Positions 9,276-45,513 of a DNA stretch of 47,429 nt are shown here, piece after piece. Numbering within the stretch: position 1 is the stretch's first letter; every line of letters begins with the position of its first letter. A program made the position numbers and the translations under genes. This stretch comes from Candidatus Zixiibacteriota bacterium (GTDB lineage Bacteria > Zixibacteria > MSB-5A5 > DASWLN01): the NCBI GenBank assembly GCA_036396115.1, contig DASWLN010000038.1, positions 1 through 47,429 of the forward strand, read 5' to 3'. The notes under the pieces were generated by a model. That model was not told where the DNA came from and made no database searches. It worked only from the letters and a program-made list of their open reading frames with translations.

Positions 9276-10000
9276 GTAGAGGTTAGATTTATCCCGCCTG
9301 TGGCGGGATTTACCCGACCTAATGCCTCTCTTAAACCCCTCCTGACCTCCCCTTATCAGGGGAGGAAAACGTTTCGCATCCACCTGACAATTAGGTGAGG
9401 AACGGTTTTTGTCCCCCTGACAAGTGGGTTACAGGGGGTTAACAGTTTGTAGGTCTTGATGCTTCAGGAATAGGAATTTTCCGCTTTTAGCGGAATCTTG
9501 GTGACCCGAACCGTATCGTAATTTCGTGCAGGAATTCCAATTCCTGCACGAACTAAACGCATCGGTACTTCTCCTCCGCCAAAGGCGAGAGATCTTGAGA
9601 CCAATGCCGATACATCAAGAATCTCCCCTAACCCTCGCCTCGATTCGGCCCGCCTCGGCGAGCCATCGGCGAGACGGGCGAAGCGGGCCTCTTTTGCAAA
9701 GAGGGGAACAAAAATCCCCCTTTGACAAAGGGGGAAAACAGGGGGATTTTATGGTTTGCAGGTTTTTCCGGTTTGCGGATTATTCTGATGTTTCGGGAAT
9801 AGGAATTCCCGAAGGCACCTCCATCGGCATTTCTCCTCCGCCAAAGGCGAGAGATCTTGAGACTAATACCGACGCATCAAACGGGGTAAGCAATGGCTGC
9901 GCCGTTGCTTCTTTGGGAACGGTGCCGTAAACCATGCGGTTCATGGCGGTGCCATGAACCAATGCGGTTTATGGCGGTGCAACCGTTCCCTACCCGCTGC
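9276..10000. repeat. Large intergenic mosaic of nested palindromic repeats
   Basis: Contains the 17-bp TCCCGCCTGTGGCGGGA insert (9292-9308), DUF559-end-type hairpins (9336-9365, 9717-9748), 59-bp direct repeats (9560-9618, 9822-9880) and tandem 22/23-bp micro-inserts (9925-9974). Confidence 0.85.
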
Positions 10001-10087
10001 CCAAGGTGGCTTAAGTGTCAATCTTATTTGCTCAGAAGGCTCGCCGAAATAGAGCTAACACATTTTACAGAGAAGTTACATTTTTGC

Positions 10088-10115
10088 TTGACAAGAAAGA
10101 TTGGCTTATTATATT
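10088..10115 (+). promoter_or_regulatory. Putative sigma70 promoter of the surface-protein operon
   Basis: TTGACA-16 bp-TATATT, about 215 bp upstream of the first start codon. Confidence 0.55.
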
Positions 10116-10330
10116 AAATCTAATTTTGTGGCTTTAAACCAAAATAGGGCTTTTGAAAAGTGGATGTAATTTTGATGTGTCCCTCTTTGAGGAGAGGCTT
10201 TAGTTTTTCGAATCTTTTCTATCATTTCAAGAAAGAAAACACCAATCTGAGAAATCAAAAATAGTTAGTCAGTTTCAGTGAGGGGATTTTGTTCGTAAAT
10301 TCTTAATATAATCGTTACAGGAGGTGCCAA

Positions 10331-12172
10331 GTGAGATTTACAAGTAAGCTGCTTATAATTTCGATTTTGTTTATTCTGTTTGTTATTCCCTGCGGTGTTG
10401 CATATAGTCAGGACCCAACTATATGGTATGTGACTTTTGATCCGGGGATAGGAGATTACACTTTGCCTAAACCTAATTCTATTTCAGCTTTCATCTGGTT
10501 CCCTGAAATAGCAGATATGGACACTACGATTTATTATCCTTTAACTTTTACATTAGACGGTTTACTCATATATAATTGGGAGCCAAATTCAGAGTTTGTC
10601 CAAAGCGGATATAATGTTACTTCAAATAAATATTTCCATAGACCGGAATACGCTAGCTATGATGTTTTGGATTCGATTCGATTAGATATTGAGTTGACTG
10701 ATAGTCTGTCACTTGGGGCCCATGAGTGGAAAGTAGAGCTGTGGCTTGTGGATTGGCCCTTTGAGCCTTGGTTTGCAGGAGCAAAGACCTTTTATGCTGA
10801 TACTGTCTGGTATGCTCCATCTGAAGCAACATCTCTCGCTTTGATTCCTGAAAAGGATCACTACACCTGTAACTCACCTAAATTTGAAGCGGCATTCAGT
10901 TCTCTGCCCGGATACCAATTGATTGATACTACTGTAAAGTTTACTCTATATGCTCCCAACGAAACTTTAGATGTCTATGATGGCTCCAGAGATACAGCAG
11001 TTTTAGATGGGTATTATGCCAGATCGGATGTCGCTCAGTTAAAATTATTCATTGAAGTTGACGATGAGCAAACCCTTTTAGATAGCAGTCAGTATTCCTA
11101 TGAGATTTCAGCCATAGCCGTATCTCTTACGTTACCACGGATAATATACTCTAAGGAGGATACCTTTTCAGTCGGAAATCTTACGACGCCCAAGGAGATC
11201 ATCCCACAGTCTTTTTCCTATGTTGGTCCTAGGCCCGAATTCTATTATACGATTGGAAGGTCCGGCACTGCTCTGGATACCACTAACATCTACTTGGATT
11301 TATTCTACGTGACGTTCGATTATGACACAGTCGGAGATAGCACCATAGAGAAGAGAAACTATCTTAAGACTATCTATCCCAATCAGATGTCGAAATTCGC
11401 AACTGATACAGTAAAAGTAGCAACCAATCTGGAACTGATTGACATGGCTGCTATGGATGTGTTGGTTTGTGGACAAGCAGACCAATATGCGCGTCAAGGC
11501 TATGAGAATTTTGTCCCCTATACTTTAAGAATGGGGTATATGGATACCGTATCTAACAAAAGAGGACCGGCTTATAAAAGATTTATTGTAGACAGGGTTT
11601 CGCCACAGATAACTATGCTGGATTCAACTGATAAGGCGTGGAAATTCCACATACAGGATGGCGGTTCGGGAGTGAACAACAGCTCAGTCGTAGTTACGCA
11701 GAATGGTCAAAAAGTAACAAATGATGCTCTTGTTCAGTATAACCCAACTACGCACATTTTAACTTATTATCCCCTGACCCTGGATGCACTGTTTACACTT
11801 GAAGCCGAAGATAATGTTGGAAATGAGGGCAGTTATTCCACTTATGTGAAGAGTGGTAGATTGATTGCTTATGATATGCATAGTTATCCTAATCCCTTCA
11901 ATCCTACCAAAGGGGAAGAAGCCACAATTGTCCTAAGCTCAAATAGACCAGACAATCAAGCTCTGGAGATAACAGCCAGGGTCTGTGATTTAGCAGGGAA
12001 ACATGTAGCCACCCTGAAGCAGAATGCAGGTAAGCTATTATGGAATGGCAAGACAGATGGAGGAGAATTGGTGGCAAATGGAGTATATCTGTGTTACGTG
12101 AGCATAAGGGATTTGAATGATTTAACTGTCCAGAATTATCTTTTGAAAATAGCCGTGGTTAAGAAAGATTAG
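10331..12172 (+). CDS. Secreted surface protein A with C-terminal FlgD-Ig/T9SS-like sorting domain
   Basis: Signal peptide ending ..AYS-Q. C-terminus SYPNPFNP...CDLAGKHV...LWNGKTDGGELVANGVYLCYV...KIAVVKKD. CAGGAGG RBS. Confidence 0.8.
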   Translation: MRFTSKLLIISILFILFVIPCGVAYSQDPTIWYVTFDPGIGDYTLPKPNSISAFIWFPEIADMDTTIYYPLTFTLDGLLIYNWEPNSEFVQSGYNVTSNKYFHRPEYASYDVLDSIRLDIELTDSLSLGAHEWKVELWLVDWPFEPWFAGAKTFYADTVWYAPSEATSLALIPEKDHYTCNSPKFEAAFSSLPGYQLIDTTVKFTLYAPNETLDVYDGSRDTAVLDGYYARSDVAQLKLFIEVDDEQTLLDSSQYSYEISAIAVSLTLPRIIYSKEDTFSVGNLTTPKEIIPQSFSYVGPRPEFYYTIGRSGTALDTTNIYLDLFYVTFDYDTVGDSTIEKRNYLKTIYPNQMSKFATDTVKVATNLELIDMAAMDVLVCGQADQYARQGYENFVPYTLRMGYMDTVSNKRGPAYKRFIVDRVSPQITMLDSTDKAWKFHIQDGGSGVNNSSVVVTQNGQKVTNDALVQYNPTTHILTYYPLTLDALFTLEAEDNVGNEGSYSTYVKSGRLIAYDMHSYPNPFNPTKGEEATIVLSSNRPDNQALEITARVCDLAGKHVATLKQNAGKLLWNGKTDGGELVANGVYLCYVSIRDLNDLTVQNYLLKIAVVKKD

Positions 12173-12202
12173 TTAGATAGATTCTCACTCAGGAGGTGGT
12201 TA

Positions 12203-14206
12203 ATGAGAAAGTTGAGCAAGTCGGTTATGCTGATAGGTGTGATTTTTCTGATATTCGGCTGGAGTGGCGTCTCTTTTGCCGAATATGAGGTATTTTTTGT
12301 TCCATCCTTCCAAGATAGTTTTACCACGACAAGGCCTGAAATCAGAATCAAGTTTCCCAAGGGAGGGGTGGGCCCAACTAAGGTAGCAATTGATACACTA
12401 AAGCGTTGCGCAAACGAGCCCTACTATGGTTTCATTGATTCTACTGGTAGATTCCCAAGACTAGATTCGATATATTACACAAAAACAAGTCCAGCTGATA
12501 CAATAGTTCGTGCCGGGTTCGGTGACTCTATGTATCAGACAGATGGGTATAATGTCTTGTGCCTTTTCTGGGATACCGCCACGGCACTTCCAGCCAGAGA
12601 TTCAGCAAGTGGCAAACCGGCCTATGCACTAAAGGTTGATTCAGCCGGCACCGTCTTCCGTTATCCGCTAACCCCCTGCAAGTATAATGTTTCCCGTGCT
12701 GGCGAGCTTGTGGTTAAACCGGCTCATAAGTCCAACGACTATACTAACCGTACTCCTATATTCCAAGCGGAGTTCTCTATTTTTAAGGAGGTCAAAGGTG
12801 ATACTACCTGGTATGATGGAGTATTTCTTGACACCAACTTAACGGTTGTCTTAAAAGCTACTGGGATAACAGACACTTTGTACGATTACAAGAGATTTCC
12901 GCAGTTGCGACCAGGTCTGATTGGTAATCTAAGAAAAATTCATCCGGGTAAGATGGTGTTTACTATCAGCTGGCTTGACACCTCTTACTATCTACCTCTG
13001 GACATGACCAAAGCATATATTGACAGCGTAACGGGAGGGGTGTGGGATTATCAAGGTCTTAGTATTATTTGCGGCTCTCCTCCACTTGGTTACAGTCCTA
13101 GGGGAGTAGCTGACACTTTCTGGGTTGATGGAACTCCACCCGAGATGGAATTACAGGAGATGAACTACGTCAGCAAATCCCCATATTTCTTGCTCAAGGC
13201 ATCGGATGCCAAAGCCGGAGTAAATACTGACTCCCTCTTTGTTGACCTGTATAAAGTCGAACTTTATGGTGAAGCCCCTCCGGATGATAGCGTGGAAGAT
13301 AGAAGTTATCTGAAGAGCTTGCAGGTTGAAGGGCTCGATCCATCATTAGGGAGTGTTTTAGTGAATACCGGAGTTGAATTGGAAGATGTGGAGGGTGGTA
13401 TGGCTTTGGATGTCTGGGTGTTCAATGGTAGACCGTTTGATGTGAATGAGTATATGACAAACTTAGATGCCGTCTATCCGGACAGCTTAGGTCCGATGGA
13501 TGGGGCAGGAAATCTGATTACCCCTCTGTATAAACGTTTTTATGTGGACGGGATACCGGCGAACGTAAGATTATCTTCAAACTCCACTCACGAGATTAGG
13601 ATTTTTGAAATCTCCGATACCTCCTCGTGTTATCAAGTTGATACTTTAGGACACGTTGAAATCCTTTGCTCAGGAGTAAACACTGCCAGCGTCAAGTTGT
13701 ACGAGAATTTCCAACTAGTCACTCCTGATTCAACCAAGTACAACTCGTCAAGTGGAGCTTACTCTGTCTACTATAGTCCAACTTCGGAGAATGTATGGAT
13801 AAATCTGGATGTGGCAGACAAAGTGGGTAACATAGCTACTTATCAGAACTATTACGAAGATGACCAGCTGAACTTGGTGGAGCCGCATAATTATCCCAAT
13901 CCTTTTAGCCCGGTTAGTCCCATAGTTGACCACCGCAGGACAGTCATAGACCCGGGGTTAACCAGAACAACTGATATGGAATTGACAATCGATATCTATG
14001 ACTTAGCCGGACACCATGTTGTTTCGGTTACTCCGAATATGGCGGATGGAGGCAGAGGGTATTGGGATGGTAGGACAAAAGATGGCACTCTGGTGGCCAA
14101 TGGAGTCTATCTGTGCTATATTCAGGCAAGGGATACAGCCCAAAATAAGACTTTGACTGAAGTAATTAAAATAGCAGTGGCAAAAAATGATAAGAGAATA
14201 TTTTAA
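12203..14206 (+). CDS. Secreted surface protein B, paralog of A, with C-terminal FlgD-Ig/T9SS-like sorting domain
   Basis: Signal peptide ending ..SFA-E. C-terminus NYPNPFSP...YDLAGHHV...WDGRTKDGTLVANGVYLCYI...KIAVAKND. Colinear similarity to A (YKRFxVD, SGVNxxSV, AxDxVGN). Confidence 0.8.
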   Translation: MRKLSKSVMLIGVIFLIFGWSGVSFAEYEVFFVPSFQDSFTTTRPEIRIKFPKGGVGPTKVAIDTLKRCANEPYYGFIDSTGRFPRLDSIYYTKTSPADTIVRAGFGDSMYQTDGYNVLCLFWDTATALPARDSASGKPAYALKVDSAGTVFRYPLTPCKYNVSRAGELVVKPAHKSNDYTNRTPIFQAEFSIFKEVKGDTTWYDGVFLDTNLTVVLKATGITDTLYDYKRFPQLRPGLIGNLRKIHPGKMVFTISWLDTSYYLPLDMTKAYIDSVTGGVWDYQGLSIICGSPPLGYSPRGVADTFWVDGTPPEMELQEMNYVSKSPYFLLKASDAKAGVNTDSLFVDLYKVELYGEAPPDDSVEDRSYLKSLQVEGLDPSLGSVLVNTGVELEDVEGGMALDVWVFNGRPFDVNEYMTNLDAVYPDSLGPMDGAGNLITPLYKRFYVDGIPANVRLSSNSTHEIRIFEISDTSSCYQVDTLGHVEILCSGVNTASVKLYENFQLVTPDSTKYNSSSGAYSVYYSPTSENVWINLDVADKVGNIATYQNYYEDDQLNLVEPHNYPNPFSPVSPIVDHRRTVIDPGLTRTTDMELTIDIYDLAGHHVVSVTPNMADGGRGYWDGRTKDGTLVANGVYLCYIQARDTAQNKTLTEVIKIAVAKNDKRIF

Positions 14207-14232
14207 CCATTAAACCAAGGGAGAGTGAGAAG

Positions 14233-15150
14233 ATGTCAAACTTCATTAGAAACATTGTTCTCCTTGCTATTGTTTTTAGTATGCTTTGTGTTCCTCCCCT
14301 CTTAGCAGATGATAACCATGCCATGCCAGTGCTGAGAATGGGTGTAGGGGCCAGGGCTTTGGGTATGGGTGGAGCTTATATTGCGGAGGTGAAGGACGCT
14401 TCAGCCACCTATTGGAACCCAGCTGGCTTAACCGAGATGGAACATCTCAACATAACCGGGATGTTCTCATCCGAGATGTCTTATGAGAGGAATCATAATT
14501 TCCTGGCTTACGGTAGAAAATTCGGTTTCGGCGCTTTGGCTATGGGCTGGATATCCCATGAGGTTAGAGGAGTTCATGGATATAGCTATGAGAATCTGCC
14601 TACCAGCACATTCAGGGAGGTAGATAATGTATTTATGTTCTCCTACGCCAGAAAGATCGGAAAATTCTCCTCCGGAGCAAATTTTAAGATAGTTGACCAA
14701 AGGATGGGAGATTACTTAAGCGAAACCGGCATCGGATTCGACCTGGGGGTGCGTTATTCTTATAACGACGATCTTGTTTTCGGTGCAGTGGTAAAAGATA
14801 TTGCCACTAAGGTTGGCGGCTGGACCGGAAAATATGAAGTCTGGAAGGATAGAGTTCCAGCTAACTTCGGAGTAGGAGCAGTAGTCTATCCTTACGCTGG
14901 TTTCACTTTCCCGGTGGATGTCTACAAAGTTGAGGGCAGAGAGGATATGGCACTCCATTTCGGCGGAGAATATACCTATAAACTTGAAGAAAAATACTCC
15001 TTCAGCCTTCGCGCTGGCTCAAATGACGGCCAAATAGCTTTTGGATTTGGTCTGAAGTTTGTGAAATTCACCATAGATTACGCTTTTATGAACGAACAGC
15101 AGGATTTCTTAAAGGAGAATCACAAATTCTCCTTCTCGGCTGATTTTTAG
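14233..15150 (+). CDS. PorV/PorQ family outer-membrane beta-barrel
   Basis: GVGARALGMGGAY..YWNPAGL N-terminal signature, alternating beta-strands, C-terminal Phe (FSFSADF). Confidence 0.85.
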   Translation: MSNFIRNIVLLAIVFSMLCVPPLLADDNHAMPVLRMGVGARALGMGGAYIAEVKDASATYWNPAGLTEMEHLNITGMFSSEMSYERNHNFLAYGRKFGFGALAMGWISHEVRGVHGYSYENLPTSTFREVDNVFMFSYARKIGKFSSGANFKIVDQRMGDYLSETGIGFDLGVRYSYNDDLVFGAVVKDIATKVGGWTGKYEVWKDRVPANFGVGAVVYPYAGFTFPVDVYKVEGREDMALHFGGEYTYKLEEKYSFSLRAGSNDGQIAFGFGLKFVKFTIDYAFMNEQQDFLKENHKFSFSADF

Positions 15151-15171
15151 AAGTCGAAATGAGCCAAAACT

Positions 15172-15203
15172 AAAAACCCTCCCGCTTCAGCAGGAGGGTT
15201 TTT
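15172..15203. terminator. Intrinsic (bidirectional-type) terminator
   Basis: AAAAACCCTCC-loop-GGAGGGTTTTT, 22 bp after the PorV-like stop. Confidence 0.85.
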
Positions 15204-15208
15204 GTATT

Positions 15209-15530
15209 GTAGGGGTCGCATTCCCTGGCCATGGAGGTCGAGCGGGGTGTGAACCGTTCTGGTTCACACCGGGGAAGAACGGGTAGGCTGACTTGGTCCC
15301 GCATTTTGCGGGATCGGGTGAGGAAACCCGGCAGGTACAATGGTCCGCACAGGGATAAATTCCCTGTGCTACGAATATAACATGTCGTAGGTGTGGGAAT
15401 TTCGTTGGTTCGGGAATTGGATTTCCCGAACCACTTGTGAGCGGGAATTCCACAGGTAGACAAATGTATTAATCTTCTTTGTGTCGGGTAGCTCGCCAAA
15501 TGGCTCACAACCCGACCTACAGTGTCTAAA
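15209..15530. repeat. Cluster of GTAG-type palindromic repeats
   Basis: 15222-15296 matches the reverse complement of about 47262-47307, with a 23-bp insert at 15247-15269. Also TTCGGGAATTGGATTTCCCGAA and GGTCGGG..CCCGACCTAC-type hairpins. Confidence 0.75.
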
Positions 15531-15625
15531 GAAAATAGAGAGAAGATACTGGGCAAAGGTTTGAAGGGAGCTTACCGAATCATAAATCAAAGCGCTGTAA
15601 AAAACCCGTAATAAAGGAAGAATTT

Positions 15626-16109: not shown

Positions 16110-17888
16110 TTAACGCAGGAAAATTAACTTTTTGGTCTCGGAGAATTCCTTAGTTTTCAGGTTATAAAAATATATTCCGCTCGGCAAGTCCATACCTGAA
16201 TTGTCCTTTGCATTCCATTCTATCCGGTTTTGTCCTGAAAGCATATTTTGGTTCAAAGTGAAAACTTTTTGTCCCAATACGTTGTAGATGGTTATGTTAA
16301 CTTCTGCTTGCTTATCCAGATAGAAAGATATAGTGGTACTGGAATTGAATGGATTGGGATAATTCTGCTCTAATTTAGGTCCTTTAGGGGGGTTATTTGG
16401 ATCCTCACCAGTATGCTCCTTTAACTCGATGGAATAAGTATAATATTGTTTTCCATCCTGAACATAATAATACCCTTCTTTGATTTGGTCTTCCACTGCA
16501 ACGACAGTCAAGATTGCTTCTTGAATATTCTTGCCGAAGTCGGATATGCTAACGCTTATCCCAAAAGGGAAGTTACTAAGTCGTTCAACTGATATAACTC
16601 CTCCCTTTTCATCATAAGTTACGATTTTACCCAAGAGGATAGTATTTAGTTCGGGGTCGATTTGGTCCTTTTGTAGTCTGAAGTCGAGTTGATAGGTTTT
16701 GCCATTATCTAAGGAAGCATCAGCTGAAAGCTCGATATAGTCAGAAGAATAAAGATAAGAAAATAGACTATCTTTACCGTAAATTACTGAGTAGGTTTTT
16801 TCGTTGTTTATAAATGAAGTATCAACCAAATGTAGAGCCGGGGCATAGCCACAATTCTGCAGGGAATCTGGGTTTCCGTAATTTATCTTTAGATAACCTA
16901 TTTCGTTTTTCACCTCCACATTCTTATATCCGTATTTTCCGTCTTCAATTGTGGTATCATCTAAAAGATTTGCCATTGCCCAGTTTGTGAAAACCTCTCT
17001 TAAGAGGTCGTCTCCGGATAAACCATATCTTTTGAACTCGTCTTTTTCAAACATTCTTGCCAACGAATACATACCACTGAAAGTTCCTGACTCCCTTCTG
17101 ATATACTGGTACCATAGATCGTCGTGGATTGAATCTGTCAAGCCAGGAAACTGCTCATATAGATAAACACCCCACAAATACCAATGCCAATATTTGCTGG
17201 TAAGTGGAGGTCCAGATGAAAACCAAGGAAGGGGATTATCGAATGGTATATTGTAATTGAATACTCCTATATTCACTTTTTTGTATCCGGTGAGGAATCG
17301 AGATAGTTCGGACTTAGTTTCATTCACCCACTCGTTATCATAGTTTGTGTTTCCCTGATTACACAAATGCTGCAATTCATGGGCAAAGAGGCCCATAATC
17401 AAAGGGTCACCAGGATACAAAAGCCCTGTTCCATATCTTACCCGAATGGCAGAATAGAAGACATTCCTGCCAGCATACCAACCATAACCCTTGCAGAAGT
17501 AACTGGGGTTGCTTCCATTACAGTCTTGTGCGTCATTCGGGTCATAGAGATAGTATTTTATCTTGGTATAAGTACTATCCCAGATGGTAAATCTTATCCC
17601 GGCTTGGCTTGAGTCTAAATCATTGGGGTTAAAATAGTTCCAGACGACTGGAAATATGTCGGAATTGTTTGTAGTGTCATCATCCAAGATGAGATTTATG
17701 AAATCGGAAGTATATTTGTCCTCCCAGTTTTGCACAACTCCGTCCGTTACATATAGCTCAAAGCAATTGTCAAACACAGGGAAGTTGCTGGTATCATACT
17801 TGTGGAAGGTAGGATCGGTTGGACTCTGAGAGAATGCAGTGTCAAGAAACGCAAAATATATTAACAAAAGCAGGATGGTTTTCTTCAT
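16110..17888 (-). CDS. Secreted HExxH zinc metallopeptidase with T9SS type A-like C-terminal domain
   Basis: Signal peptide. FAHELQH followed by WVNE (third ligand). C-terminus QNYPNPFNSSTTI..YNVLGQKV..LPSGIYFY..TKKLIFLR. Confidence 0.75.
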   Translation of the reverse strand: MKKTILLLLIYFAFLDTAFSQSPTDPTFHKYDTSNFPVFDNCFELYVTDGVVQNWEDKYTSDFINLILDDDTTNNSDIFPVVWNYFNPNDLDSSQAGIRFTIWDSTYTKIKYYLYDPNDAQDCNGSNPSYFCKGYGWYAGRNVFYSAIRVRYGTGLLYPGDPLIMGLFAHELQHLCNQGNTNYDNEWVNETKSELSRFLTGYKKVNIGVFNYNIPFDNPLPWFSSGPPLTSKYWHWYLWGVYLYEQFPGLTDSIHDDLWYQYIRRESGTFSGMYSLARMFEKDEFKRYGLSGDDLLREVFTNWAMANLLDDTTIEDGKYGYKNVEVKNEIGYLKINYGNPDSLQNCGYAPALHLVDTSFINNEKTYSVIYGKDSLFSYLYSSDYIELSADASLDNGKTYQLDFRLQKDQIDPELNTILLGKIVTYDEKGGVISVERLSNFPFGISVSISDFGKNIQEAILTVVAVEDQIKEGYYYVQDGKQYYTYSIELKEHTGEDPNNPPKGPKLEQNYPNPFNSSTTISFYLDKQAEVNITIYNVLGQKVFTLNQNMLSGQNRIEWNAKDNSGMDLPSGIYFYNLKTKEFSETKKLIFLR

Positions 17889-18681: not shown

Positions 18682-19650
18682 ATGAATAATCATCCTCAAC
18701 TTCCCTCGGCCTCGCCGAGAGGCGGGCGTCGAGAGACGAGTCCGCAGGTCTCCATAATTGTTCCAGCTTACAATGAGGCAGAAAACATACCTCTTCTCAT
18801 GGAGAAATTCTCAAGAATGTTTCAGTCCTCCGGCCTAAAAGGAGAGGTGATTTTGGTTAATGACGGTTCCACGGATAATACCTTGGCTCAAGCTAAAACC
18901 TGTCAAGAAAAATATGGTTTCTTAAGAGTTGCCTCGCACAAGGTTCGAAAGGGAATAACAGATGCATTGCTAACTGGATTTAGTGATTCGCAAGGAGAGG
19001 TTTTCGTATTCTGGCCAGCTGACCTGCAATATCTGCCGGAAGATATACCTCATATGATAGAGAAGATAGACCAGGGTTTTGATATAGTTACCGGCTGGAA
19101 ACAGGGGAATTATGGGTTAAAAGGGTTTGTGTCTTTCTGCTATAACCTCCTCTCCCGCATTCTGTTTGGTATAAGAGTTCACGACTTGAATTCGGTTAAA
19201 GCTTTTCGCCGAGATATTTTCGAGGATGTAACTCTGCGCAAGGATTGGCACAGATATATGGTTGTCTTAGCTGCGGAGAAAGGATACAAGATCGCAGAAG
19301 TCAGGGTGAAGTTATACCCCCGCAAGTATGGAAAATCGAAATTCGGTTTTTGGCGAATCCCCATAGGGATACTGGACTTATTCAGCGTTAAGTTCCAGCT
19401 CTCTTTTTTGAGAAAGCCGATGCTCTTTTTTGGATTTTTGGGTTTGGTATTATTTTTTTTGGGAGTGGTAGTTGCTGGTTTGGCGCTTTATCTAAGATTT
19501 ATAGAACATGAAGGTTTTAGGCCGCTTTTGTATTTGGTTATCTTGCTTGTGCTTTCAGGCATCTCATTTTTTGCCTTGGGATTTCTGGCTGAAGCCATAG
19601 TGAGCTTAAGGGAAGAGTTGAGAGATATCAAAAACAAACTGATCAAATAG
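18682..19650 (+). CDS. GT2 glycosyltransferase (ArnC/polyprenyl-phosphate glycosyltransferase-like)
   Basis: SIIVPAYNEAENI, VNDGSTD, ADLQ, DIVTGW, two C-terminal TM helices. GC-rich insert near the N-terminus. Confidence 0.9.
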   Translation: MNNHPQLPSASPRGGRRETSPQVSIIVPAYNEAENIPLLMEKFSRMFQSSGLKGEVILVNDGSTDNTLAQAKTCQEKYGFLRVASHKVRKGITDALLTGFSDSQGEVFVFWPADLQYLPEDIPHMIEKIDQGFDIVTGWKQGNYGLKGFVSFCYNLLSRILFGIRVHDLNSVKAFRRDIFEDVTLRKDWHRYMVVLAAEKGYKIAEVRVKLYPRKYGKSKFGFWRIPIGILDLFSVKFQLSFLRKPMLFFGFLGLVLFFLGVVVAGLALYLRFIEHEGFRPLLYLVILLVLSGISFFALGFLAEAIVSLREELRDIKNKLIK

Positions 19651-19908
19651 TGTCTTAACCTTGCCTTTCTTTTCTTACCCTCTTTTCCTTAAATCCAATT
19701 TGATTTCAGGGGTGTGGACTCAAGATCCAAAGAGTTGGCTCTCAGGACAACCTGAGTAGTAGTGTTTGTCCCAGCCACTTTAGCTCTCTTGACTATCTTT
19801 TCCTTGAGCTAATAACTGTCCTCAATTAGATGCGAATAAGAATGATTGGGCGTGCACAACGGTTCGTGAGGTTGGGTACCAACAGTTTGAGAATTGGGGT
19901 AATCTATA

Positions 19909-19936
19909 TTGACAGACGGATATTTTTATTTATATT
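19909..19936 (+). promoter_or_regulatory. Putative sigma70 promoter of the large downstream operon
   Basis: TTGACA-16 bp-TATATT. Confidence 0.5.
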
Positions 19937-19972
19937 GATACTTCAACCTTGAATCCCTAACACTCATTTTTC

Positions 19973-20686
19973 ATGAAAACCTTAGTTATCATACCCACTT
20001 ATAACGAAAGTACAAACATAGCCACACTCCTCCCTCAGATTTTAGCTCAGGACCCGACAATCGATGTTTTGGTGGTGGATGATAATTCACCGGATGGAAC
20101 TGGAAAACTTGTGGATAAGATGACAGGCGAAAACAGTCGCATTCAGGTAATTCACCGCCAAAAAAAAAGTGGCTTGGGAACTGCTTATAAGGCTGGCTTT
20201 AAACATGCCCTGGAAAGGGGTTACGATTACATATTTGAGATGGATGCCGATTTCTCGCATGACCCCGGATATATCCCTCATTTTCTGGAAGCGATAAAAG
20301 AGGCTGACTTGGTTTTGGGTTCGCGTTACATAAGAGGGGTGAATGTGATAAATTGGCCTATGTCGCGCCTGCTTTTATCTTACTTTGCCAATATCTATAC
20401 CCGCTGGGTGACCGGCTTGCCCATAAGGGATTCCACTGGTGGATTCAAGTGCTTTAAAAGAGAGGTTTTGGAAAGCATAAATTTAGATAGAGTCAAGTCG
20501 AATGGATACACCTTTCAGATAGAGATGAGCTTCAGGGCTTGGAAGAAGGGGTTTCGCCTGAAAGAGATTCCGATCATCTTCGAGGACAGAAGGGAAGGAC
20601 AATCCAAGATGTCCAAGAAGATAGTTCGCGAGGCAGTATGGATGGTATGGAAGTTGAGGCTTCTGAGTATTCTGGGCAAGATATGA
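19973..20686 (+). CDS. Polyprenol-monophosphomannose synthase (DPM1-like GT2)
   Basis: IIPTYNE, VVDDNSPDGTG, GLGTAY, EMDADFSHDP, DSTGGFKC, FEDRREGQSKMS. Confidence 0.92.
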   Translation: MKTLVIIPTYNESTNIATLLPQILAQDPTIDVLVVDDNSPDGTGKLVDKMTGENSRIQVIHRQKKSGLGTAYKAGFKHALERGYDYIFEMDADFSHDPGYIPHFLEAIKEADLVLGSRYIRGVNVINWPMSRLLLSYFANIYTRWVTGLPIRDSTGGFKCFKREVLESINLDRVKSNGYTFQIEMSFRAWKKGFRLKEIPIIFEDRREGQSKMSKKIVREAVWMVWKLRLLSILGKI

Positions 20687-21582
20687 CCCTATCTTTCGAC
20701 GTTTCAATTATAATTGTCAATTATAATGTGAACAAACTTCTGTTTAAATGTCTGAGCTCGGTTTTCAGAACCAATAGCAAAAAAAAGATGGAAGTGATAG
20801 TTGTGGATAATGCTTCCCGGGACAAAAGTACAGAAACAGTGAAGAAGGATTTCCCGCAGGTGAAATTAATCCAAAACAGAAAAAATCTGGGGTTCGCCCG
20901 AGGAGCTAATCAGGGAATTAAGGCAAGCCGAGGCAGGTATATATTTCTTCTGAATCCAGACACTTTAATTACCGCCGGTGAACTGGATAAGATAATAGAC
21001 TTTATGGAGAAAAACAAAAAAGTTGGCATCTGTGGGCCAAAGATGGTAAATTCACAAGAAAATATACAGTATTCCTGCAGAAAATTTCCGAATTATCTCA
21101 CCTCCATATCTTCCAGCCAGTCGCTATTGTTTAAGCTTTTTCCGAGAAACCCCCTCTCTCAAGAATATCTTCTCACTGAGAAAAGTCACCGAGAAGAGAT
21201 GGAGGTCGACTGGGTATCCGGTTCCGCCCTTTTAGCCAGAAAAGATATGCTGGACCAAATCGGAAACTTAGATGAGAACTTTTTCATATATGTGGAAGAT
21301 GTCGATTTATGCTATCGCGCCAAAAAGGGTGACTGGAAAGTTTTCTATTATCCGTATGCCGAGATACGGCATCTGATTGGAGCGAGCACCAATCAGGAAA
21401 GATCAAAAATGGTAATTCAACATCATAAAAGTATGTATCATTTCTATCAAAAACATTATTCAGCCAAAGCCATTTTATCTATCTTGGTGCTGTGGGGGAT
21501 CTTCCTTAGAATGGGGATAGTGCTATTGAGCCAGATGGTTGAGTTAATTCTCCAAACGAATTCAAAAAAGGAAAAAGTTTGA
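20683..21582 (+). CDS. GT2 glycosyltransferase (WbbL-like rhamnosyltransferase family)
   Basis: SIIIVNYN, VVDNAS, NLGFARGAN, LLNPD, DWVSGSALL, YVEDVDLC. Start set at the ATGA overlap with the upstream stop. Confidence 0.88.
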   Translation: MTLSFDVSIIIVNYNVNKLLFKCLSSVFRTNSKKKMEVIVVDNASRDKSTETVKKDFPQVKLIQNRKNLGFARGANQGIKASRGRYIFLLNPDTLITAGELDKIIDFMEKNKKVGICGPKMVNSQENIQYSCRKFPNYLTSISSSQSLLFKLFPRNPLSQEYLLTEKSHREEMEVDWVSGSALLARKDMLDQIGNLDENFFIYVEDVDLCYRAKKGDWKVFYYPYAEIRHLIGASTNQERSKMVIQHHKSMYHFYQKHYSAKAILSILVLWGIFLRMGIVLLSQMVELILQTNSKKEKV

Positions 21583-22628
21583 TAGTCCTTTTCACGTTCA
21601 TCATATCATTGCTCATAAGTTTTGCCATAACCTTTTGGATTAGAAATGTTTGTATCAGGCATAATCTATTGGATCATCCAGACCAAAGGAAGATGCATAC
21701 AACCCCGATTCCTCGCTTGGGGGGAGTGGGCATATTTCTGTCCATTTTGGTATCGCTCTTAATTGTTTTCCTTTTCAAGAGTTCGCTCTTCCGTGAAATA
21801 GAATCTCAAATCCTGTTTGTGCTATTAAGTGGGATGGTGATATTTGGCTTGGGATTATATGATGACCTTAAGCCGGTTAAACCAGAAATCAAACTAATTT
21901 TTCAGGCAATTGCCTCCCTTATTCTAATCTTAGCTGGCTTGAGGATAAACCTCATTCACATACCTTTTTATCGAACCATCAATTTGGGATGGTTCAGTTA
22001 TCCCCTCACCTTAATTTGGTTTTTAGTCATCGTCAATGCTATGAATCTATTGGATGGTCTGGATGGTTTGGCGGCTGGGGTTTCAGTCATAGCCGCAGGC
22101 TCACTTTTAGTAGTAGGTTATATGCTCAAAGTGGATATCGCCCTTTTGATATCCGCAAGCGTTGCCGGAAGCTGTTTGGGTTTTCTAAGATATAACTATT
22201 TTCCGGCCAGCATATTCATGGGGGATTCCGGTTCACTTTTTCTCGGTTACCTTTTTGCCTTGATGGCAATCATCTGTCCCATCAAAAGTTACACCAGTAT
22301 GGCTCTTTTCGTTCCGCTTTTGGCTCTGGGGGTGCCGCTAATTGAGATAACGATTTCTTCTTTTAGGCGAATCATAGGAAAGCAAACCTTATATCTGGCT
22401 GACAAAAGGCATATATTTCATTTCCTGATAGAAAAAGGTTTCAGCCATAGAGATACAGTCTGGCTATTTTATCTTTTGTCCTTGATCTTCGCTATTATGG
22501 TGATCAGCCTTCTGACTCAGAGCCATAAAATCGCTTTGCTCTTGGTCTTTTTATTAATATTGACCTTCGGGACAATTTTTGTATCTTGGTATAACAGGAC
22601 GCAAGCAAAGCTCAAAGCGGAGAAGTAA
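21579..22628 (+). CDS. wecA: Undecaprenyl-phosphate GlcNAc-1-phosphate transferase (WecA/TagO, MraY-like GT4)
   Basis: [46 protein letters not shown]. Multi-TM. Confidence 0.88.
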
Positions 22629-43950: not shown

Positions 43951-44898
43951 TTATTTTAAATCTCCGGAAATGGAGATACGATGCACTCCGCCGAGGTCAG
44001 CATAAGATGAATAAGCGTAATCGAATCTATAGACTTTCCAGTTCACGCCCAAGCCAAAGGAGAATCCAGCCAAATTGTCTTTGTCCGAACCGGTCTTGTA
44101 GTTTTTACCAAAAGAGCTCCATCCCATTCTCAAGAAGGCCGGCTTAAAAGAGGAAAGCTCTGCGCCAAGACTGAAATAGATATCATTGTCAAATGGTTTA
44201 GCCCCATCCACTGCTACTAAGAGTGGCAATCCATGAACATAGTGCGACACTCCGACTTTAATTTCAGCTGGCAGGGATTCTTTATGCTCTTTAGAAAGGC
44301 CATTAAGTTGATACCCCAGATTCTGAACCATTACTCCCACTTGAATCTTCTTTTTTTCTGACTTATGAAAAGCTCCAATATCCAGAGCTAAAGCATCAGA
44401 AGTGTAATTATCTATCTTCTCCAAGATGAATTTGGCATTTACACCCAAACTGATTAGAGGATGAACCTTGCGGGCATAGGTGGCTATGAGGGCGAAGTCA
44501 GCCGCTCCGAAGGTGCCTAAGTTTTCGCCATATTGGTCTGTTTTATCGAAGGAGCCATAATTGAAATAGTTGATTGAAATTCCCAGTCGAGTTTTTTCAT
44601 CGTAGGGATGGATGTAACCAATAAAGCCGGATTGAATGTCAGTTAAATAGTTATTGTAGCTGGTGGTGAAACTTCGGTTAGGGAGTTGGGTTAAGCCGGC
44701 TGGGTTAAAATAGATGGCTGATTGGTCATCTGCCAATCCCACAAAAGCACCACCCATTGCTACTGCCCTTGCCCCCACTCCGATTTTCAAGAAAGAATAG
44801 GCAGTTGTGCCAGCATTGGAATTGATTCCGGCGTAGGCATAAGATATCAGAAAGACACCTGTTAACAGAGTCAAAATTGCTATTTTGGTTTTTCTCAT
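43951..44898 (-). CDS. PorV/PorQ family outer-membrane beta-barrel (second paralog)
   Basis: FLKIGVGARAVAMGGAF....DDQSAIYFNPAGL, FDYAY, GGVHRISI. Confidence 0.85.
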   Translation of the reverse strand: MRKTKIAILTLLTGVFLISYAYAGINSNAGTTAYSFLKIGVGARAVAMGGAFVGLADDQSAIYFNPAGLTQLPNRSFTTSYNNYLTDIQSGFIGYIHPYDEKTRLGISINYFNYGSFDKTDQYGENLGTFGAADFALIATYARKVHPLISLGVNAKFILEKIDNYTSDALALDIGAFHKSEKKKIQVGVMVQNLGYQLNGLSKEHKESLPAEIKVGVSHYVHGLPLLVAVDGAKPFDNDIYFSLGAELSSFKPAFLRMGWSSFGKNYKTGSDKDNLAGFSFGLGVNWKVYRFDYAYSSYADLGGVHRISISGDLK

Positions 44899-44959: not shown

Positions 44960-45442
44960 TTACCAGGATTTGACTGTGCGGTTTATGATATCCTCAACCA
45001 GTTTCTCAACCGCCCTTTCTTTTCCCTGGCTTTCCTCCTCTGTCACCGAATAGACCCCCCAACCCTTCATATTCTCTTCCCATAAGTTCTTCTTTTTGTT
45101 CTTATCTTCCAGCCAGACCTTGACGTAGATCTCCGAGATATACTCCTTTATGTTTTCCTGCTCATCATAAGTATAGGCCCTACGTTGATATTTGGTGATA
45201 GTTCCGTACAGAATGGCATCTGCCTCTTTCTCGTTTAGAACTTTTAAGACGTGATTCTGCACAAAACCATCCACCACTTTTTCAGTTATACTTTCGCTCA
45301 AGCCATATTCCGCGGTCTGATTCTCAAAAGGTGGTATGGCAATGGAGTTCACTCCGGGAAGGGAGGTGCCGTGAAAGGAGTAAGGCCCACAGCTGATAGC
45401 TAGTAGTAAAACCGGAAATAAGACATATTTAATTGTTTTCAT
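44960..45442 (-). CDS. LptE family lipoprotein (Bacteroidota-type)
   Basis: Lipobox LAISC-G, then YSF.G......SIAIPPFENQT and DAILYGTITKY. Start may be 45442 or 45454. Confidence 0.75.
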   Translation of the reverse strand: MKTIKYVLFPVLLLAISCGPYSFHGTSLPGVNSIAIPPFENQTAEYGLSESITEKVVDGFVQNHVLKVLNEKEADAILYGTITKYQRRAYTYDEQENIKEYISEIYVKVWLEDKNKKKNLWEENMKGWGVYSVTEEESQGKERAVEKLVEDIINRTVKSW

Positions 45443-45513
45443 TTTCCTCTCCACATTTCAAAATTTACTTCTCCTGTATGCTCTATTACGAGGTTCCTCC
45501 TTTTGTACGCTAT

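Follow-up and report, generated by a model that had tools for sequence, protein, structure and literature searches.

A PorV/PorQ-family barrel encoded behind two paralogous surface proteins in a Zixibacteria genome: a probable private carrier and anchor

How does a secreted protein come to stay on the surface of its cell, and which barrel holds it there? In current type IX secretion system (T9SS) models, PorV handles all type A-like sorting signals, and private carriers of the PorP/SprF kind serve type B signals only. A locus in a 47,429-nucleotide (nt) stretch of DNA from a Candidatus Zixiibacteriota bacterium (positions 1 to 47,429 of GenBank contig DASWLN010000038.1, called the window here) raises the question of whether the PorV family has private carriers as well. 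The locus encodes two secreted proteins, A and B, that share a C-terminal sorting domain (CTD), followed by V, an outer-membrane barrel of the PorV/PorQ family. The original prediction, read from the letters of the DNA, took it for an operon of surface proteins with its own PorV-like shuttle. The comparisons described here suggest that the PorV family has split into cargo-dedicated carriers and anchors, each with its matching CTD subtype and a conserved stalk, in several poorly known phyla; such a split would provide a genomic rule that predicts which surface proteins remain on the cell, and via which barrel. For A and B, the probable course, by analogy with characterized systems, is exit through the SprA translocon and retention by an uncleaved CTD on V, their private barrel.

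The barrel and its pairing with cargo genes

The operon comprises the following features, with positions counted from the first letter of the window and proteins measured in amino acids (aa):

10088 to 10115, plus strand: sigma-70-type promoter, TTGACA, 16 nt, TATATT, 11 of 12 consensus positions
10116 to 10330, plus strand: 5′ leader of ~210 nt, A/U-rich, conserved and poorly structured, AGGAGG ribosome-binding site at its end
10331 to 12172, plus strand: gene A, secreted surface protein of 613 aa, GTG start, open reading frame (ORF)
11138 to 11866, plus strand: conserved Ig-like module of A, aa ~270–512, before the CTD, from homology and profile search
11873 to 12172, plus strand: CTD of A, FlgD_ig-like, aa 515–613, matching the CTDs of distant upstream giants
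12203 to 14206, plus strand: gene B, paralogue of A, 667 aa, ORF
13100 to 13873, plus strand: conserved Ig-like module of B, aa ~300–557, before the CTD, from alignment motifs and profile search
13874 to 14206, plus strand: CTD of B, aa 558–667, matching the CTDs of distant giants
14233 to 15150, plus strand: gene V, PorV/PorQ-family outer-membrane barrel, 305 aa, cargo-linked “V-type” clade
15172 to 15203, no strand assigned: bidirectional intrinsic terminator hairpin closing the operon, GC-rich, its 14-bp stem including 7 GC pairs, A and T runs on either side

Promoter, leader, both cargo genes, barrel and terminator all lie where the original prediction had placed them. AGGAGG ribosome-binding sites precede gene A (10319–10324) and gene B (12191–12196), and the gaps between the genes are short, 30 nt from A to B and 26 nt from B to V.

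Judged by its profile matches, V is a genuine PorV/PorQ-family barrel that is neither PorV nor PorQ proper. It passes the family model NF033709 (104.6 bits, cutoff 90) over residues 29–305 and stays below the equivalog cutoffs for PorV (NF033710, 26.7 vs 250), PorQ (NF033711, 67.9 vs 220), and PorV2 (NF052325, 100.5 vs 325). On the PorP_SprF model PF11751 it reaches 17.9 bits against a cutoff of 22.3, and no single stretch passes. An AlphaFold2 (AF2) model built from a 110-sequence alignment has 14 strands, with a predicted local distance difference test score (pLDDT) of 87.5 and a predicted template-modeling score (pTM) of 0.83. Foldseek places the PorV chains 8gl6_F and 6h3i_F first, at template-modeling scores (TM) of 0.69–0.70, ahead of FadL and TodX. 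A profile of the V family finds PorV as its sole match among all PDB sequences (E = 2e-10); profiles were needed here, as searches of PDB sequences with single B and V sequences gave no matches. Homologues of the barrel number 4,591, and the named ones are annotated as “PorV/PorQ family protein” of Zixibacteria and Eisenbacteria. The family assignment first made from the letters is thereby borne out by the curated model, the 14-strand fold and the best structural match.

A second barrel in the window (43951–44898, minus strand) is PorQ-like, at 201.9 bits against a cutoff of 220, and falls in a separate clade of the tree from V. It is preceded by the gene for a small lipoprotein (44960–45454, minus strand) that has no CTD and was rejected as a further cargo on that ground. 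This barrel differs in kind from V.

The pairing of barrel and cargo gene recurs in other genomes. In the relatives L007, L009, L010, and L011 the order Na+/H+ exchanger, A, B, barrel, adenosine kinase is kept, and the A type and the B type are each conserved. Five distant barrels, 33–49% identical to V, each lie 76–130 nt 3′ of a same-strand cargo gene whose product (410 to 3,554 aa) has a FlgD_ig-like domain at its end. Scanning named genomes with the barrel profile added 80 loci. Where the V-subfamily hidden Markov model (HMM) scores at least 269 bits, a same-strand upstream CTD gene is present at 11 of 12 loci, and the remaining one lies where its contig breaks off. Of the PorV/Q barrels with lower scores, about 15 of 65 have an upstream CTD gene.

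The same division appears in the tree. V-type barrels form a clade of 24 with a support of 98 (Shimodaira–Hasegawa-like approximate likelihood ratio test, SH-aLRT), and in each of the 23 that could be assessed the barrel gene follows a CTD gene on its own strand. A separate clade of 23 barrels from Ignavibacteria, Melioribacter, Chitinophagales, and Chlorobi, probably the general PorV, has such a gene upstream of none of its members. Within the order to which the window belongs, V-type barrels are single-copy and their scores bimodal (436–472 bits vs at most 181); 11 of the 21 genomes have one, each time with an upstream CTD gene. Because the other ten genomes have none, the cassette is accessory. 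The linkage of barrel clade and CTD subtype, as far as alignments and trees can tell, is strict and ancient. The cargo-plus-dedicated-barrel interpretation therefore gains a distinct clade in which every assessable member follows a gene with this CTD subtype.

The cargo itself differs between lineages. For eight relatives within the order the region upstream of the barrel was retrieved, and in each of them a single giant gene precedes it; six of these genes are complete and encode 2,578–3,568 aa, the other two being truncated where their contigs end. The flanks could be compared in one relative, L130, where the Na+/H+ exchanger that neighbors the window’s operon lies on the giant-gene side. 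By this comparison, A and B occupy the place of the single giant Ig-repeat protein of relatives. The cassette also occurs in Zixibacteria-like and Eisenbacteria genomes and in metagenome-assembled genomes (MAGs) labeled Ignavibacteria. The claim that the module belongs to a non-Bacteroidota lineage is accordingly right in part and has to be relaxed for the MAGs carrying the Ignavibacteria label. In Eisenbacteria and unnamed MAGs (L024–L027, L030), V-type barrels are 486–606 aa long, and the additional C-terminal stretch of two homologues, P0114 and P0115, is an OmpA-like domain of the peptidoglycan-binding kind, accompanied by TSP_3 repeats. By analogy, such a fused barrel fits a static anchor, like PorP plus PorE in one polypeptide.

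The sorting domain, the stalk and the passengers

The CTDs of A and B belong, by their profile matches, to the FlgD_ig / Por_Secre_tail / CHU_C superfamily, and they match the CTDs of the distant giants encoded before other V-type barrels (E = 1e-15 to 1e-21 for A, 1e-18 to 1e-24 for B); against the canonical type A CTD of a gene 2 kb away they reach only ~1e-5. On the type A models TIGR04183/PF18962, A has no match and B scores 13 bits vs a cutoff of 23. The FlgD_ig scores are 14.9 (A) and 17.7 (B) vs a cutoff of 27, and neither protein matches the type B model TIGR04131. The minus-strand neighbor at 16110–17888 passes the type A model at 49.6 bits and serves as a positive control within the window, so the type A models work in this genome. 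What had been described as a shared sorting domain with characteristic motifs is indeed shared, and by the curated cutoffs it is neither a type A nor a type B CTD.

Among curated models, the closest matches of the two CTDs are the C-terminal tails of PorU and PorZ. Among PDB sequences, a profile built on the A/B family finds just the Ig domain of FlgD and, weakly, the CTDs of PorU and PorZ (E = 0.03 and 0.16). In a fold search with the model of B, of which the C-terminal half alone is informative, the top match is PorU (6ZA2) at a low TM-score; the CTD of B is predicted to be all-beta (pLDDT 60–74). Cleaved CTDs measure 67–88 residues; PorZ and PorU keep theirs, at lengths of 96 and 108, respectively (PMC11285876). 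At ~100–108 aa, the CTDs of A and B fall into the retained size class. Their length, together with the PorU/PorZ-like HMM and fold matches, suggests that the domain is not removed.

A and B are 28% identical over ~500 aa (E = 2e-40), with C-terminal domains that are alike, and both begin with Sec-type signal peptides as read from the sequence, with cleavage between AYS and QDP in A and between SFA and EYE in B. They are thus two paralogous secreted proteins, as had been proposed, and searches of Pfam, NCBIfam, and PDB sequences found no catalytic domain in either, which agrees with the earlier failure to recognize a catalytic motif. Of the conditions named beforehand as telling against a surface module, those examined came out in its favor: cargo genes and barrels stay next to each other in relatives, and the searches turned up no enzyme fold. 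The composition of both proteins is acidic. Homologues are rare, with three for A among 5.8 billion proteins and three or four for A and B. As a separate observation, Gln directly follows the predicted signal-peptide cleavage site in A and in several CTD proteins (AYS-Q, AFS-Q, AYA-Q).

Before the CTD lies a module of ~230–250 aa with the motifs VDxxxPxV, DxxSGV, and DxxGN, which are typical of bacterial Ig-like domains. In A it is homologous to the pre-CTD region of the L013 giant and of a 410-aa protein at L016. When 1.84 billion cluster representatives were searched with a profile, the module turned up in 241 proteins, at E < 1e-10 in 98 of these. Its end almost invariably lies 100–120 aa before the C-terminus, in host proteins of 360–4,578 aa. 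The AF2 model of B, from a 9-sequence alignment, is all-beta for residues 310–550 and the CTD (pLDDT 60–80), and residues 1–306 are below a pLDDT of 50.

The N-terminal 270–300 aa of A and B have no matches beyond their closest relatives, and the two proteins share with the giants only the C-terminal ~350 aa. That A and B might be fragments of a giant passenger was considered and rejected, as their N-termini have no similarity to the giants. Full-length partners in other lineages consist of strings of Big_3_3, Big_7, Big_13, fn3, and Y_Y_Y domains, with no enzymes. Nucleotide identity to L009 is 81–86% for the cargo genes vs 95% for the barrel gene. Judged from these alignments, the faster evolution of the cargo is as expected of exposed surface proteins, and the pattern is one of a conserved anchoring end with a variable passenger.

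Export, anchoring and competing explanations

The genome of the window (1.48 Mb in 194 contigs, 65% complete) encodes SprA on contig C133 (4367–10189; TIGR04189, 715 bits). All 21 genomes of the order have a match to SprA, 20 of them above the cutoff. Directly adjoining SprA is a predicted M28-family lipoprotein (C133, 3472–4362); M28 is the fold of the glutaminyl cyclase of Porphyromonas gingivalis. A PorU candidate lies on contig C185 (31361–33589): it has a Peptidase_C25 domain (207.8 bits) and a propeptide as well as, where the contig stops, the beginning of a CTD, and scores 52.6 vs a cutoff of 420 on the PorU equivalog NF033707. The genome holds at least five confident PorV/Q-family barrels and ~19 CTD proteins, including further cargo-then-barrel pairs on contigs C131 and C89. 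On contig C33 (3–3213), a propeller-CTD protein is followed by two PorV/Q-family barrels; this arrangement recurs in nearly every genome of the order (L112–L129), and is probably the housekeeping PorZ/PorQ/PorV-type set in one operon. A 497-aa protein on contig C78 (6451–7944) combines a PorV/Q-like barrel, which at 58 bits stays under the NF033709 cutoff, with a charged linker and a C-terminal domain that resembles FlgD-Ig/CTD, and may be a barrel-cargo fusion.

GldK, GldL, and GldM gave no match above cutoff in any of the order’s 21 genomes, a set with 18 of high quality and one that consists of a single contig. Nor did they in seven cassette-bearing genomes elsewhere, namely a Melioribacter MAG, two Eisenbacteria, Zixibacteria SM1_73, and three Ignavibacteria-labeled MAGs. 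Two Flavobacteriales used as positive controls each showed an adjacent gldK-gldL-gldM cluster far above cutoff. These negatives are defined by the model cutoffs, and very divergent homologues could escape them. Among the papers searched, we found no report of SprA without GldKLM in these lineages. What powers carrier release where SprA occurs without detectable GldKLM is a question that this pattern raises.

From these parts, a path can be proposed. A and B would be exported across the inner membrane by Sec and probably O-glycosylated in the periplasm at D-(S/T)-(A/I/L/M/T/V) sites. Their special FlgD-Ig-type CTD would then be recognized at the SprA translocon, which the genome has. In analogy to the PorV structures, V would dock at the translocon, take the CTD on its extracellular loops, and leave with the cargo. 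The CTD would stay uncleaved on V, making the barrel a permanent membrane anchor. The conserved Ig-like module before the CTD may act as a stalk or as a second contact, and the N-terminal 270–300 aa would be the variable, fast-evolving, exposed part.

The principle of a cognate carrier is published (PMC10994853, PMC12618676, PMC10202324). Inside SprA, PorV uses its loops to bind CTDs, and type B cargo have an alternative carrier (PMC10994853). Cargo of that type remain on PorP/SprF-like barrels, and PorE ties some of them to peptidoglycan (PMC9143113, PMC12618676). One review suggests that cognate PorV-like barrels shield CTDs from cleavage, with PorZ-PorQ as the comparison (PMC10202324). Against this background, “carrier and anchor” is probably a better wording than the “shuttle” of the original prediction.

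Several points weigh against the proposed path. The whole case is built from comparative genomics and predicted folds. The CTD of A and B does not pass the curated models for type A or type B, which leaves its use of SprA putative. A single barrel gene serves two cargo genes. With GldK, GldL, and GldM undetected, the energy-requiring release step of the published model would be without a known driver. Finally, the N-terminal 300 aa of A and B gave no model and may conceal a cryptic enzymatic or lattice-forming fold.

The sequence also carries signs of probable glycosylation. The O-glycosylation sequon D-(S/T)-(A/I/L/M/T/V), considered typical of Bacteroidota, occurs 12 times in A vs 3.0 expected (z = 5.6) and 17 times in B vs 3.1 expected (z = 8.1), an enrichment of four- to five-fold over chance, with five control motifs at expectation. 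By sequon density among 921 genes, B ranks first and A sixth. Orthologues at L007, L009, and L010 keep or raise the density (z = 5.8–10.3). Diverged orthologues have only 5–7 sites in common alignment columns, so individual sites turn over. The giants of L013–L015 and of the order (L130–L137) are also sequon-enriched; the Eisenbacteria-type giant L017 shows no enrichment. This distribution suggests that a Bacteroidota-type O-glycosylation system operates outside the classical Bacteroidota, and the sequon-packed cargo raises the question of how far that system reaches. A candidate source of the glycan lies 3.5 kb 3′ of the operon, where three GT2 genes and a Glycos_transf_4 gene (a WecA/MraY-type initiating transferase) form a cluster at 18682–22628 that is syntenic in L011.

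Promoter and leader are conserved. Both promoter hexamers are invariant in the relatives L009 and L007. The leader is 95% and 78% identical to theirs, at least as conserved as the barrel gene (95%, 75%) and far more than gene A (81%, 65%). Compared with shuffled sequences it is less stably folded (z = +2.2); it matches no Rfam family, and may be a translational enhancer or a protein-binding platform. Sequons, promoter, and leader together fit an important, probably abundant, glycosylated surface protein. Codon adaptation was rejected as a proxy for expression, the bias of this genome being too weak: A stands at the 44th percentile and B at the 11th, and reference genes spread from the 9th to the 96th, so the proxy is without power.

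The leading alternative is about function. A and B may form a two-component glycoprotein S-layer resembling TfsA/TfsB and tethered to the outer membrane via V, an idea that is compatible with the anchoring mechanism and that had been part of the original prediction; we consider it possible, if on the doubtful side. Two tandem paralogues, each type kept in relatives, are what such a layer calls to mind, as are the strong consensus promoter, the strong ribosome-binding sites, the terminator, and the long conserved leader. A sequon density in the top 1% of the genome despite site turnover, the glycosyltransferase cluster 3.5 kb downstream, the acidic composition, and the lack of an enzyme domain agree with it too. 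However, orthologous cassettes hold a single giant Ig-repeat protein, more like a fibrillar adhesin than a lattice subunit, and 10 of the order’s 21 genomes lack the V-type cassette. No relationship to known families of S-layer proteins was detected, and codon adaptation is average or low, although this is a low-power test.

Retention on V would be beside the point if A and B were ordinary type A cargo of a general PorV, with a CTD cleaved by a PorU-like sortase and V unrelated or redundant. The CTD superfamily and the C25 PorU-like peptidase of the genome would allow this, and type A CTDs are all handled by PorV according to PMC12618676. The pairing makes it unlikely: V-type barrels follow a CTD gene in 23 of 23 and 11 of 11 assessable cases across phyla, vs 0 of 23 for the clade taken to be the general PorV, and CTD subtype and barrel clade vary together. 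Only 26 nt separate B from V, and one promoter and one terminator are common to the genes.

Another thought is that A and B are not cargo and belong, as accessory components, to the secretion machinery, where they would be functional analogues of PorU or PorZ on a PorV/PorQ-like barrel. By HMM and by fold, the C-terminal 120 aa match PorU and PorZ best, and both are known T9SS components that are barrel-bound and retain their CTD. This likeness is confined to the CTD and the adjacent Ig domain, and A and B have neither a C25 peptidase nor a beta-propeller. The genome already has a C25 PorU-like protein and the propeller-CTD/two-barrel set, kept across the order. With the V-type cassette missing from half of the order and passengers ranging from 360 to 4,578 aa, a role as machinery is very unlikely. 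Least probable of all is that V is a FadL/TodX-type channel for hydrophobic compounds with no part in protein sorting, a notion prompted by the next-best fold matches (TM ~0.6) and a weak Toluene_X Pfam match, since PorV ranks above FadL in fold and is the sole profile match in PDB sequences, the curated PorV/PorQ model is passed, and linkage to CTD-bearing genes is strict.

Relation to known systems and flanking DNA

Carriage and anchoring by V would most closely resemble PorZ-PorQ and PorU-PorV of P. gingivalis. Those barrels belong to the family NF033709, as V does, and bind the longer, uncleaved CTDs of their partners, which the CTDs of A and B resemble best. The genome of the window also has a propeller-CTD gene followed by two barrels. 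However, A and B have no C25 peptidase or beta-propeller, their passenger being a variable surface domain instead, and V forms its own clade, fails the PorV, PorQ, and PorV2 equivalogs, and belongs to an accessory cassette (11 of 21 genomes).

In gene arrangement, the closer parallel is type B cargo with PorP/SprF, such as SprB-SprF, PG1035-PorP-PorE, and Fjoh_3952-3951-3950, where a private barrel gene lies directly 3′ of the cargo gene; that analogy, drawn in the original prediction, is apt, as A, B, and V are arranged in the same way. In the PorP/SprF systems the barrel is needed for exit and sets the final location, as would be the case for V. PorP/SprF cargos are often giant adhesins. In static versions an OmpA-like protein provides the tie to peptidoglycan, and the Eisenbacteria V-type barrels have such a domain fused to them. 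The differences are that V belongs to another barrel family (17.9 vs 22.3 bits), that the CTD of A and B is not TIGR04131, and that the known pairs have been studied only in Bacteroidota with a GldKLMN motor.

TfsA/TfsB of Tannerella forsythia share with A and B the tandem paralogous CTD proteins, the dense sequons, and the expected surface location. Their type A CTD is removed, however, and they have no private barrel; no sequence relationship to A or B was detected. The PorV of Flavobacterium johnsoniae in the SprA translocon (6H3I, 8GL6) is a 14-strand FadL-like barrel that matches V at a TM of 0.70, but V is ~60–90 residues shorter and ~14% identical. That PorV serves a large number of type A cargos as a general carrier; V, in contrast, has genetic ties to just one or two.

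In the papers searched, we found no description of a cargo-dedicated clade inside the PorV/PorQ family, of the V-linked CTD subtype and stalk module, or of the conservation of the cassette across Zixibacteria-like, Ignavibacteria-labeled, and Eisenbacteria genomes. If only the core reading, anchoring on a private barrel, holds, V would represent a well-supported new subfamily within a known principle and not a new kind of system. A bolder version, which we hold to be somewhat more doubtful than the S-layer, is that Zixibacteria-like bacteria, Ignavibacteria, and Eisenbacteria have a SprA pathway without PorKLMN/GldKLMN, in which private PorV-family barrels each extract and anchor an O-glycosylated protein, and that the operon of A, B, and V is one such unit and supplies the cell’s main glycoprotein coat.

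Around the operon, Rfam and tRNA scans over the window found no RNA genes. Non-coding, GC-rich stretches with repeats and small palindromes lie on both sides, at 9300–10080 and 15205–15560. The ORFs at 9526–9930 and 15170–15556 overlap these stretches, have an odd amino-acid composition, and are probably not genes.

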